A DNA stretch of 64,000 bases, taken from the NCBI GenBank assembly GCA_964016885.1, contig OZ024745.1, forward strand, positions 35,340,001 through 35,404,000, in the 5' to 3' direction. Source of the DNA: Eledone cirrhosa. Taxonomy: Eukaryota. This document shows positions 8,148 to 50,487 of the stretch, piece after piece (the first letter of the stretch is position 1; each line of letters starts with the position of its first letter). The notes beneath the pieces are model-generated. The model did no database searches. It saw only the letters and a list, made by a program, of their open reading frames with translations, and was not told the DNA's origin. Position numbers and translations under genes: made by a program.

Positions 8148-8724
8148 AGCGGCGATGAACAACAACAACACCCAAACAAACAACACTGACCTAAGAGAAG
8201 TATAAATAAGTAAATAAAAATAAAATTAAATAAAATAAGATAAATAAATACATACACAAGCACATAAACACACACTAGTCACCCAGCAGACACAACACTA
8301 TACACACTAGTCACACATCACACATAACACTATACACACACGCAAACGCATGCGCAAAGAAGACAAAATAAAATAAGATAAACAAACAAGCAAATAAATA
8401 AATAAATATATAGACAGACTGAACAAAAAAATGGCGTAGACATACAACACAACAGGAGGAACAATGAATATAACACCACTGACGATGTTGCAGATGTGCA
8501 ACGAAAGATTTATGTAAATTATGTAAACTATATATATGTGTTTGTGTCTATATTGTATCTGTATTATTTTTGACCGCCGGTCAGTCAATGGCAACATTGA
8601 GGACCGAGTAAGTTAGATCGCAGATATATATATATAAAAGACAGCGAGAAGCGAAAACCAACCAAACAGTGAGTGTGTTCTGTTATTAATTCTCGCAATA
8701 TTACGCAAATATGACCCTCCCCAA
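8148..8724 (+). mobile_element. Non-coding Penelope-type element in (TA)n with a hammerhead core at 8479-8512
   Basis: CTGACGA-T-GTTGCA-gatg-TGCAAC-GAAA-GATT-TA. It ends in aatatgaccctccc, as does the GIY-YIG element at 12868-12881. Confidence 0.6.
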
Positions 8725-10112
8725 ATATATATATATATATATATATATATATATATATATATATATATATATATATATATATATGCATATATATATATAT
8801 ATATATATATATATATATATATATATATATATATATATATGCATATATATATATATATATATATATATATATATATATATGCATATATATATATATATAT
8901 ATATATATATATATATATATATATATATATATATATGCATATATATATATATATATATATGCATATATATATATATATATATATATATATATATATATAT
9001 ATATATATATATATATATATATATATATAAATAAATATATATATATATAAATATAAAATATATATATATAAATATATATATATATATATATATATATATA
9101 TATATATAAATTTATATATATATATATATATATATATATATATATATATATATATATATATATATATATATATGCATATATATATATGCATATATATATG
9201 CATATATATATATGCATATACATATATATATATATATATTTATATATATATATATATAGTAATAATAATAAATGTGAAGACTAAAATCCAAAGAGGGCTC
9301 GATAAGGATAAATATATATCAAATATATAAGAACCGTAGAGCAAATATTTATTAAAATAACAGATTAAAGTTTAAGCAAAGAATCGGTGCTTTCACTCTT
9401 AACGGGATCTACTGAGTTTCAGCAGCGATTCTTTGCTTAAACTTTAATCGGTTATTTTAATAAATATATATATATATATATATATATATATATATATATA
9501 TATATATATATAAATATATATATATATATATATATATATATAAATATATATATATATATATATATATATATATATATATATATATATATATATATATATA
9601 TATATATATATATATATATATATATATATATATATAAAGATATATATATATATATATATATATATAAAGATATATATATATATATATAAAGATATATATA
9701 TATATATATATATATATATATATATATATATAAAGATATATATATATATATATATATATATATATATATATATATATATATATATATATAAAGATATATA
9801 TATATATATATATATATATATATATATATATATATATATATATATATATATATATAAAGATATATATATATATATATTAATATATATATATATATAAATA
9901 TAAATATATATATATATATAAATATATATATAAATATAAATATATATATATGTATATATATTAATATATATATATATATAAATATAAATATATATATATA
10001 TATAAATATATATATAAATATAAATATATATATATGTATATATATTAATATATATATATATATATATATATATATTAATATATATATAAATATATATATA
10101 TATTAATATATA
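8725..10112. repeat. (TA)n microsatellite field interrupted by a small foldback element (9259-9466)
   Basis: Direct reading. 9259-9410 matches 52170-52321 and is followed by an inverted copy of 9345-9391. Confidence 0.95.
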
Positions 10113-10184
10113 TGTTGATTTAAAACTGTTGATTTAAAACTGCACTGTTTACAAGTGTATTTTAACCTTCATATCATGTCTTCC

Positions 10185-47346: not shown

Positions 47347-49449
47347 GTTGAAAAGGAGTGGAAAAAGATGGGAAAGACCACTTTACTCACTTCTCGTAGA
47401 GGAAAGATGGTTTCTCCATCCTTCTCACTGCTTGTGGCCTCCCCCGGAAGGATGTCCTTATCAACCCTCCTGGAGAGTGTTTGTCGGAAGTCTCCGATGT
47501 TCTTGGGGAATTTTTGTTTTAGTGTCGTGTACGTTTTCTTTGTTAAGCGAGTGATTTGTATGTGTGGAGGTGGTGTGAATTTTTGGGGTGTTGTGTAGTC
47601 TTTTTCTGTGATGCTGGTGTTATGTTGGATGTAGTGTAATAATTGGTTTTTATTCAAATTTAATTGTTTCTACTTTAGGCACAAGGCCAGCAATTACCCA
47701 GTGTATTACTGGTACTTTATGTTATCGACCCCGTAAGGATGAAAGGCAAAGTCAACCTCGGCGGAATTTGAACTCAGATCGTAAAGGGACGTAACTATGC
47801 TGGAACGCATGGCGTCCGACCCTCCACCGATACTGCCAATCCACTCAAATTTAATGCTGTGTAGTGTGTATCGTTTTGGTTGTTTTGTTTTGTTTGCGTT
47901 TGTTGTGGGTTTGTTTCTGTTTCGCTTTCTGGTGATCTTTGTGGTGTTGGTGATGGTGGTTGTGGGGTTAATGATGGTGATGGTGTTGGTGTTTGTGGTG
48001 ATGGAGCTGGTGATGCTGGTGTGGATGGTGGCATAGCTGTCTTAACTTTTTTGTTTGTTTGCTTATTTGTTTGCATTTTATTTTTGGAGGGCGAAGGAAG
48101 AGTTGGGATAGGTCGGGGAGTGAAAAATCCTCAACAGGCGTTGGTTTTGCGTGTGGCGTGGTGGATGGCGGAGGCGCTGGTGCTAATTCTGGCGCGGTGG
48201 GTGGTGTTGGTTTTGCTACTGTTGCTGGGGTTGTTGCTGCTACAGTTGCTTCTGTTGTTGCTGCTACACTTGTTGCTGTCATTTCTGCTGCTTGTGGCTT
48301 TGATGGTTGAGTCACTGTGGTGGGTAGGAGAGGTGGCCTCAACTTTTTAGCCTGACGGCAGAAAGCCTTTAGGTGGGTTCCTTCGCCACAAACGACACAT
48401 CTAGGCCTTCTACCCTCAACGATTACGGTGAGGTGGCTGCCGTCATTGAGGTCTATCACCTCTGGAATTTCCTCAATGCTTTTTTGGTTCGCTTGGATCA
48501 GGAGCTTCATCCCAGATCCAGACCAGTTCTCCTGCTTTTCTCTTGTTATCTCAATTATTTTCGTGTTGGCCTCGATGCCGGCGAGGACGGCAGCCATTAG
48601 CCAGGGAATTTTGATGGCCGGCGGAACGTGGGTCACCCTGATCTTCACGAGTCTCTGACCACAATAGCTTGGGACGAGTGTGGACTCGTCACTTCTTAAT
48701 GGTTCATGTAGTGCTCTCTGGATTCCTGTGGGGTTCCTAAGAACACGTCCAAGGTTCCATATTTCTGCCCACGTCTGATGTGGGTTTTTTTCGCCCACAC
48801 ATGTCCCAAAGCTTTTTGTATCTGGGACTTGGATGCCCGTTCCACTCGGCGTGATTTTGTGTTTATCGTCCGATATGACACGGTGCATAGGCGCCGATGC
48901 TCCATTTTATTAGATGGGGAGTGCGGGTGAGGCTGACCCTGTACCCATCTTTTTTTACCATTCTCTTGGTTTCATTTAATTCATCCTGGCTTACCTCGAT
49001 TGTTTCGCTTTTCTTGGCTGCTTTGGCAAACGACACATTTTGTTTTGCGCTGGTGTTGATGTTGTTGTTGTTATTTTAATTGTTGTTGTTGTTGTTGTTA
49101 TTGTTATTTTTGTTATTGTTATTTTTAGTTTCAGTTGTGGTGGTGGTGGTGGTGGCGTCATTGTTTTTCGGCTTTGAAGAGTCGATTCTGTGTGAATCCA
49201 TTTCGATGTCATGAGATAATTTATTTTTTTTGTTTCAGTTGTCGCTGTGGTAGTGGTGGGGGTGGCGGCTTTAACACCTGCAGTTATTGGTAATGGCGGG
49301 AAATGAATGTCTGCATGTGACAAATTTAAATTATTGCCACTGCTTATATTTGTAGTGTTGGCAAGCGTAGTAATGTCTACAATGGTGATGGCGGGAGGTG
49401 TTGGTCTGTTAGGAAGGCTGTCAGCTTTGTGTGGCTGAGAGCCGTCCAT
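47343..49449 (-). pseudogene. Tx1-like ORF1 (gag-like), disrupted
   Basis: 47968-48888 contains VIVEGRRPRCVVCGEGTHLKAFC (CX2CX4HX4C), flanked by low-complexity T/P-rich segments. Confidence 0.85.
47665..47844 (-). mobile_element. SINE inserted in LINE ORF1 with an 11-bp target-site duplication
   Basis: TCAAATTTAAT at 47654-47664 and 47845-47855. Confidence 0.92.
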
Positions 49450-50487
49450 GCTTTTTGCAAAGAACATTTGAAAATTATAAACGTCTAAATTTTGGGCTCA
49501 AGGCCCCACTCTTTTTGAATGTCCTTTTCCGAAAGCAAATTTTCTGACTTTATAAACACTTAACAACAAACATTTTCCATAACTGGCAATTTTAAACAAC
49601 TGAAAATAACAAACATTTGCGGAGCTCACAATAATACGATTTCCTACGTACGTCTCTAATAATAATAATAATAATAATAATAATAATAACGTCTGTTTTA
49701 TTTGTGTGCACCTCAGCCTATTATTGTATGTGGTTTGATTGTGTAGGAATTTGTAATATATACCCATTATACTCTCATATACATATCAATTTTGCATACA
49801 AACGTTGTTATACACCCATTAGAACGCGTATGCGCTAGTGTGTATATATATATATATATATATATATATATATATATATATATATATATATATATATATA
49901 TATATATATATATATATACACTGAAAGTTCATTTAACCCTGATGAAGGGACTTTCAGGTCCGGAAATATATATATATAACGCCGCATACTGAAAAAACAA
50001 AACCTCACATGCACGTATTTTAATATACTTATTGACTCGTTTACACACACTCGTTCTTTTTCTCTATCTGTAACGTCCACACATTACGCACATACATTCA
50101 CAAACATTTACACACACTCAGATACACTTATATTTTTTCTAATTAATTACAAATTGGATACTTATCAGAGTTTATTATTAATGATCGATTTAATGTAGAA
50201 TTGAGATTTTATCTGTCCAAAGAAAAGTCAATAAAAATGCTTATTCATTTAGTGTTGTTTTACCGAGGAGAAAGTGTTCATCACAAAAATTCGATATACG
50301 TCAACTATTGTCAGTAGAGAGAAGCAAGGTCACCATGCGATGTCAGAAATTATAAAGTTATTGGACTGAATATATTCTTTCGCGGTTAAACATGCTAATA
50401 AATAAATAAATAAATCAAACAATGAGATAAAAAGAAATTATTTTTTATAGAAATATACAATTTCTCTTTTGATTTCCTATTCCGCTA

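Follow-up and report, generated by a model that had tools for sequence, protein, structure and literature searches.

Minimal hammerhead ribozymes are known from truncated Penelope-like elements (PLEs), where their activity as dimers is low (Cervera and de la Pena, 2014, PMC4209133). The two-ended, inverted arrangement of PLE insertions and their bias towards (TA)n were described by Craig et al. (2021, PMC8557442), whose supplement includes a Hydra element of Octopus bimaculoides, Hydra-1_Obim, with a (TA)n preference and a hammerhead, and the tail of such insertions has been tied to two internal start sites of the reverse transcriptase (RT) (Frangieh et al., 2024, PMC11167929). Animal retrozymes occur as circles (PMC7229834) and have been argued to derive from PLEs (Li, Clavereau and Pollet, 2026, bioRxiv 10.64898/2026.07.22.740005; hereafter Li et al.). 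The general picture, with hammerheads at the ends of PLEs, targeting of (TA)n, a hammerhead in an octopus Hydra element and retrozymes derived from PLEs, is already published in the accessible parts of these sources, to which all statements on them here refer. A curated annotation of O. vulgaris counts 31 Penelope-like families with recent activity, without mention of ribozymes. Here we describe a 64,000-nt stretch of the Eledone cirrhosa genome (contig OZ024745.1, positions 35,340,001 to 35,404,000, forward strand; hereafter the window, whose coordinates are used throughout) that carries six hammerhead-shaped motifs. These motifs very probably represent hammerhead folds of type I, each at the 3' end of a different repeat family; four of the families are truncated coding PLEs (families A, B, C and F) and two are protein-free units that are likely copied in trans by PLE enzymes (families D and E).

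Hammerhead motifs in the window and their folds

The window has a base composition of 32% GC with long (TA)n runs, and the genome around it comprises 3.0 Gb. Hammerhead-shaped cores are located at 8479(+) (family A), 10193(+) (B), 11177(+)/10426(-) (C), 14132(+) (D), 38069(-) (E) and 49939(+) (F), so that the six CUGANGA/GAAA layouts of the original prediction are all present. We scanned the window with a type-I descriptor requiring the core boxes, a folded stem II, A15.1-U16.1 with H17, and a stem I of at least 2 bp, the stem II rule having been relaxed after a stricter version matched just 1-2 sites. The strict descriptor matched three sites (8479, 10193 and 38069), compared with a mean of 0.005 and a maximum of 1 in 200 block-wise dinucleotide shuffles, none of which reached three. 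Permitting C at position 6 added 11177/10426, giving five observed matches against a shuffle mean of 0.025. A density at this level does not support chance occurrence. Two window copies, those at 14132 and 49939, are missed by the descriptor, the first because of a private change in stem III and the second because the fragment is truncated, while the families to which they belong satisfy the motif. Throughout families A-F the CUGANGA and GAAA boxes, A15.1-U16.1 and H17 are present, and departures from the type-I core in the window are limited to 11177/10426 (A6C) and 49939 (cut off). No hammerhead was found by Rfam among the 150 of 338 window matches listed or in the six loci scanned, the matches listed being otherwise microsatellite-driven microRNA noise and one tRNA.

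Two further CTGANGA...GAAA layouts, at 31386(+) and 29873(-), both fail the descriptor. A decayed copy of another hammerhead family, with both core boxes mutated, lies at 6490-6621(+) and is intact at two fetched loci (L021 and L068).

Every motif belongs to a genome-wide repeat family, and the six families are mutually unrelated in sequence. Each search was scored over its best 40 matches, and sequence was retrieved for 20-30 loci. The numbers of first-look candidates, not to be read as copy numbers, were 339 for A, 830 for B, 1112 for C, 1825 for D, 2191 for E and 148 for F. Among the scored matches, A reached a best non-self identity of 98-100%, C of 99%, B and D of 96-98%, and E and F of about 88-93%. 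The 1.16 Mb of fetched loci contain 31 hammerhead clusters, a count that leaves out six TTGANAA clusters without control and that bears out the expectation of many sequence-unrelated families.

A covariation test on these 31 clusters, for whose selection only core boxes and stem II were used, revealed a stem I of at least 4 bp in 18 of them, as opposed to 5.4 after swapping of the 5' arms, with the qualification that related clusters are partly non-independent and that loci were chosen around known motifs. None of 2000 arm swaps attained the observed mean stem I. Stem I pairing therefore lies far above that of swapped arms, and the core boxes together with the covarying stems constitute the type-I minimal fold that had been proposed. 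Stem III is palindromic in 14 of 27 clusters, and its duplex is predicted to be stable in E (-19.9 kcal/mol), B (-10.5 kcal/mol) and the D family (-7.2 kcal/mol), and not in A, C or F. Self-cleavage of such folds would occur after H17.

Coding Penelope families and protein-free units

As judged from their open reading frames (ORFs) and sequence motifs, the window copies of A, B, C and F are 5'-truncated ends of protein-coding PLEs. The family A copy (8149..8729, +; core 8479) comprises the last codons, the 3' untranslated region (UTR) and the pseudo-long terminal repeat (pLTR) of a candidate Neptune-type PLE, follows an inverted 11-nt remnant of its own tail, and has a stem I of just 2 bp with a predicted cut after 8512. 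Another copy (L196) carries, between two pLTR cores in direct orientation, a 1217-aa ORF that encodes RT motifs, a CX4CxxC linker and a GIY-YIG domain that includes a Cys/His motif; this ORF is uninterrupted in one of four fetched family A regions. A decayed relative of family A, family H (12038..12897, +), has inverted termini, a GIY-YIG remnant at 12126-12419 and a broken core at 12732. The family B copy (10113..10297, +; core 10193) is a Hydra-type PLE 3' end with the palindromic stem III ATGCGCAT, an 8-bp stem I and a predicted cut after 10247. The family continues into a GIY-YIG coding remnant with Hydra endonuclease (EN)-domain motifs, of which the EN part alone was seen.

Family C, a young Hydra-clade PLE, is present as the inverted arm of an insertion (10338..10966, -; core 10426) followed by a direct arm with a tail of about 90 nt (10963..11359, +; core 11177, predicted cut after 11214, imperfectly palindromic stem III ACAAUGU). 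An uninterrupted 844-aa ORF, found in three of seven fetched regions (L064, L066 and L067), carries DKT, CxCX5C, CxxC and CxH, lacks CCHH, and shows RWR in place of RWK. The protein has 1190 homologues at E 1e-20 or better, with Argonauta providing the one species-named close relative. Both arms read CUGCUGA, a private A6C change that had been taken for a family variant; it is confined to these arms and their duplicate 16.7 kb upstream (4/30 loci), and the remaining 26/26 loci read CUGAUGA, which rules it out as a family trait. The window also contains a longer duplication: positions 1-4814 repeat 16634-21487 at 98.7% identity and a spacing of 16.6-16.7 kb (gap at 4815-5014), and the A, B, C and D loci recur at the same spacing upstream of the window. 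This duplicate represents either a tandem duplication of recent origin or a haplotype that was not collapsed.

The family F copy (49915..49969, +) is a fragment that covers 55 bp from the end of an older GIY-YIG PLE; its core at 49939 stops at GAAATAT, running into (TA)n, and stem I in this family is just 2 bp. A frame with a GIY-YIG end motif is found at 15/30 loci, all of them decayed and some perhaps due to chance, and decayed copies show a Cx4Cx7C linker. Pfam searches of the ORFs returned no match at E 0.01, and sequence searches against PDB gave nothing useful; the PLE domains were therefore read from motifs and from the 1190 homologues. These motifs point to the Hydra clade for B and C, together with family G described below, and A and F, likewise assigned by motifs, are candidate members of the Neptune/Nematis group. 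The Penelope-type context that had been claimed is supported, by ORFs with RT and GIY-YIG in A and C and by GIY-YIG coding remnants in B and F. The accompanying claim that the elements are non-autonomous holds for 38069 and 14132 and fails for the other four motifs, because these are truncated ends of coding PLEs.

The motif at 14132 belongs to family D, of which the window contains the 5'-truncated end (14036..14237, +) of a 2.07-kb non-coding unit. The unit measures 1.98-2.08 kb and is whole at eight loci, with no Met-initiated ORF longer than 126 aa in 8/8 units examined, and one locus (L197) carries 2.1 tandem units plus an inverted piece. Stem III is the palindrome ATGATCAT in 22/30 loci, the 14132 copy reading ATCATCAT (1/30 loci). 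In one copy (L203), unit positions 1037-1186 and 1333-1485 are duplicates of a GC-richer 150-nt module, 73% identical, which possibly represents promoter or protein-binding elements.

Family E is a circularly permuted 489-bp unit of retrozyme type with one hammerhead per unit, taken as non-coding without a separate ORF scan. The window holds about 1.3 units (37845..38596, -; core 38069, with the 10-nt palindromic stem III ACCGCGCGGT), broken by a SINE-like (short interspersed element) fragment at 38287-38398 and adjoined by an inverted 5' piece that ends at unit position 156 (38595..38700, +). At the fetched loci, 32/65 pieces are longer than one unit, the longest reaching 1.8 units, and several span two cleavage sites; 49/65 pieces stop at unit position 156 or about 267, and the ends mostly abut (TA)n by inspection. 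Two partial units within one insertion differ by 7.4%, compared with 9.7% between insertions, the value being lower in 28/30 cases, and two insertions each carry 22 shared non-majority variants. The hammerhead is copied through at 29/30 loci. Only 1/30 5' ends falls at the cleavage site, in loci selected for covering the whole downstream query, and this absence of a pile-up fits an uncleaved and a circular template alike, separating neither. E and D conform to the layout of non-LTR retrozymes, in which non-coding units follow one another head to tail and each carries a single type-I hammerhead, and their sequence organization suggests protein-free units that are likely moved in trans by PLE enzymes. 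A further retrozyme-type family, a true multimer, is found at approximately L307:1470-4600 (G000:C218), where seven tandem copies of a 467-bp non-coding hammerhead unit, with 0-3 differences among the six full units, are accompanied by one inverted core.

Coding and non-coding families share an insertion signature. Pieces end at either of two fixed 3' positions, about 70-150 nt apart, in 39/42 cases for B, 33/36 for A, 28/29 for C and 37/41 for D, in addition to the 49/65 noted for E, the second-end counts of A, C and D being partly limited by references that end at or just past the tail. In D the two positions map to +104 and +252. The 3' flanks are TA repeats in 32/42 (B), 22/29 (C), 27/36 (A) and 30/41 (D) pieces, and both orientations occur within one locus in 13/26 (B), 11/24 (A) and 12/28 (D) cases. 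A pLTR or partial tandem, an inverted 5' copy and an optional tail are all present in endonuclease-positive PLE families. The proposal of (TA)n as a common niche thus holds for A, B, C, D and E and is less clear for F. Such a niche has precedent, since (TA)n insertion and hammerheads have already been published for the Hydra clade, including O. bimaculoides (PMC8557442).

Family G, a young Hydra-type family absent from the original prediction, has three window copies: a 3' part with a GIY-YIG ORF remnant at 5957-6370 (5015..6488, -), a short 3' end with an inverted arm (9207..9460, -), and a 3' end with a hammerhead-like fold (52114..53045, -) whose core at 52326 reads CAGAAGA (U4A). Folded by hand, the 52326 motif has a 5-bp stem I and a 4-bp stem III; the predicted minimum-energy fold of the family G 3' end does not take the hammerhead shape. 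CAGAAGA is present in 21/23 pieces (L278-L297) and CTGA in none. Hydra EN-domain motifs were found in the family, and none of 12 regions showed a full ORF. A CTGCTGA with a long stem at 9425(-) was ruled out as a motif, having been created by an inversion junction of family G. No description of a U4A hammerhead was found in the literature covered, Repbase and most subscription journals lying outside that coverage. Luense et al. reportedly treat dimeric PLE hammerheads and may list core variants such as U4A.

Proposed mechanism and competing explanations

A mechanism consistent with these observations can be outlined by analogy with published PLEs. A PLE protein with RT and GIY-YIG domains would nick (TA)n DNA (Craig et al., 2021; Frangieh et al., 2024), and reverse transcription would start at either of two internal RNA sites corresponding to the fixed 3' ends observed. 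The enzyme would often stop early or flip, which would produce the short ends and inverted arms seen in the window, and it would copy through the hammerhead, as found in family E. Families D and E would be mobilised in trans by the same enzymes. The hammerheads are predicted to cut slowly, mostly as dimers through the palindromic stem III of B, D and E, and such cleavage may release unit-length RNA. The clustering of the motifs would result from insertions that repeatedly hit the same stretches of (TA)n.

Several observations weigh against this account. The stems of A and F are weak, with a 2-bp stem I and stem III duplexes at 0.0 and +1.6 kcal/mol, respectively; predicted monomer folds are mostly no better than those of shuffled sequences, 14132 alone standing out (z -4.0), and the predicted 14132 fold buries the core. 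Cleavage was obtained in just 1/9 retrozyme dimers (Li et al., bioRxiv 10.64898/2026.07.22.740005), and in vitro the PLE hammerhead is dispensable for insertion and the ribozyme protein-assisted (Frangieh et al., 2024, PMC11167929). The fetched loci of B, F and G yielded ORF pieces and no full ORF free of interruptions, and D and E share no blastn similarity with seven autonomous-type references, among which no mobilising partner was found. TA flanks occur in just 11/35 family F pieces, whose ends are blurred. To these points must be added the limit on second-end counts given above and the drawing of loci from the best 40 matches per search, which favours young, complete copies.

The trans-mobilisation of E and D can be refined further, in that both may travel as self-cleaved, ligated circular RNA copied for more than one round by the PLE RT. 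They would then be circular-RNA parasites of Penelope elements, their copies longer than one unit carrying the PLE two-site initiation signature. We advance this tentatively, as a possibility that is somewhat less likely than not. The E pieces that exceed one unit and cross two cleavage sites are consistent with it, as are the lower divergence within insertions and the two insertions with 22 shared variants, the 5' ends not piled up at the cleavage site, the strong palindromic stem III of E, and the circles shown for other animal retrozymes (PMC7229834). However, none of the 65 E pieces is longer than 1.8 units, and an uncleaved tandem transcript would yield an identical pattern.

It is rather unlikely that the elements retain the motifs as folded relics or as signals for protein binding that have lost catalysis. 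The minimal stems of A and F would agree with such a role, as would CAGAAGA in 21/23 pieces of the young family G with CTGA in none, and hammerhead mutants of an anole PLE still insert in vitro (PMC11167929). The cores are nevertheless kept across 31 clusters with a covarying stem I, and related minimal motifs cleave, weakly as dimers (PMC4209133) or with protein help (PMC11167929).

Mobilisation of E and D by the machinery of long interspersed elements (LINEs), or their spread as satellites through unequal crossing over, is improbable. LINE-like ORFs are present in the window, no sequence link of E and D to PLEs emerged among the seven references, and Li et al. (bioRxiv 10.64898/2026.07.22.740005) discuss local tandem expansion; but the copies are dispersed over many contigs, mostly at less than two units, and two fixed internal 3' ends with inverted 5' pieces are the published PLE signature. 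More doubtful again, and very hard to sustain, is the original reading of all six motifs as non-autonomous retrozyme-like elements forming a new community in (TA)n. It draws on the short window copies without ORFs, on the genuinely non-coding E and D, on the further 467-bp unit in its seven-copy array and on the 31 hammerhead clusters. Yet A, B, C and F run on upstream into sequence coding for GIY-YIG or RT, their 5' ends varying among copies. This reading is refuted for A and C, both of which have uninterrupted ORFs, and meets with strong opposition in B and F. Chance matches in AT-rich DNA, for which the missing Rfam hammerhead among the matches listed and the two window copies failing the descriptor might speak, have next to no probability, being already refuted by the shuffle and arm-swap controls, none of which attained the observed values, and by cores kept within families.

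The remainder of the window contains other repeats. A decayed non-LTR retrotransposon at 44476-49497(-), with gag-like, endonuclease and RT frames, is presumably L1/Tx1-like by its motifs, and a rearranged non-LTR element at 54233-60042(-), with RT and a restriction-like endonuclease tail, is partly duplicated three times. An abundant SINE-like repeat of about 195 bp forms tandem clusters and single copies (886-1927, 17555-18596 and scattered) and supplies the fragment that breaks the family E insertion, minisatellites occupy 33221-33790 (39 bp, 14.6 copies) and 61397-61765 (43 bp, 8.6 copies), and a tRNA match over the Rfam threshold (45.9 bits) lies at 24324-24394(-) within an inverted-repeat structure (24182-24658).

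Comparison with known systems

The motifs described here resemble the minimal hammerheads of metazoan PLE pLTRs (PMC4209133) in their type-I fold, short or palindromic helix III and short helix I, in the presence of many heterogeneous families per genome, mostly as single motifs from truncated PLEs, and in inverted pairs 100-700 bp apart. The present sequence families are not shown in the accessible part of that work, and the core variant reported there is U3-A8, as opposed to the U4A of family G. The A6C change of 11177/10426 also occurs in a natural hammerhead of phage Bcep176 (PMC7151607), although here it is a one-locus mutation and not a family trait. No published description of these families was found in the accessible literature, Repbase and most subscription journals being outside the coverage.

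Described Hydra-clade elements (PMC8557442) share with the families found here a C-terminal GIY-YIG, DKT, CxCX5C, CxxC and CxH without CCHH, a hammerhead close to the 3' end, insertion into (TA)n, inverted copies and a tail. Family C is nonetheless a different family from Hydra-1_Obim by eye, with four short family motifs absent from the accessible supplement (PMC8557442), and its 3' UTR alone exceeds 2 kb, whereas published Hydra elements total less than 3 kb; tails are about 70-150 nt here as against 30-40 bp in those elements. With Neptune and Nematis (PMC8557442), A shares the CX4CxxC linker and Cys/His motif, and F the Cx4Cx7C linker. Among the very young families, B has strong palindromic dimer motifs, A has stems of 2 bp and G has a U4A core, a range that bears on whether PLE hammerheads matter for transposition; young Hydra- and Neptune-type proteins that are still intact in this genome offer test material.

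In anole Poseidon (PMC11167929), likewise, copies end at two fixed 3' positions downstream of the hammerhead, targets are AT-rich and the enzyme copies through a ribozyme left uncleaved; unlike in that system, the signature extends here to protein-free units and is drawn from genomic ends alone. Like E and D, non-LTR retrozymes (PMC7229834; Li et al., bioRxiv 10.64898/2026.07.22.740005) are non-coding, low in GC and arranged head-to-tail with one type-I hammerhead each, and have been proposed to be PLE-mobilised. E, at 489 bp, lies slightly over the 150-450 bp retrozyme range and within a wider one, mostly at less than two units. D, at 2.07 kb, is twice the longest consensus of Li et al. (972 bp, in a tandem search that ended at period 1000). 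If D is indeed a retrozyme, this genome combines one of 2 kb, larger than the size range known so far, with a young Hydra family whose U4A core is fixed. Unlike published retrozymes, E and D show no pLTR homology to a partner among the seven references. The published hypothesis on which enzyme moves animal retrozymes, namely that of PLEs, rests on co-occurrence and pLTR homology in the accessible accounts. This genome adds two non-coding families whose own insertions carry the PLE signature, which, if E and D are circular-RNA parasites of PLEs, would be a direct fingerprint of PLE RT mobilising retrozymes in trans.

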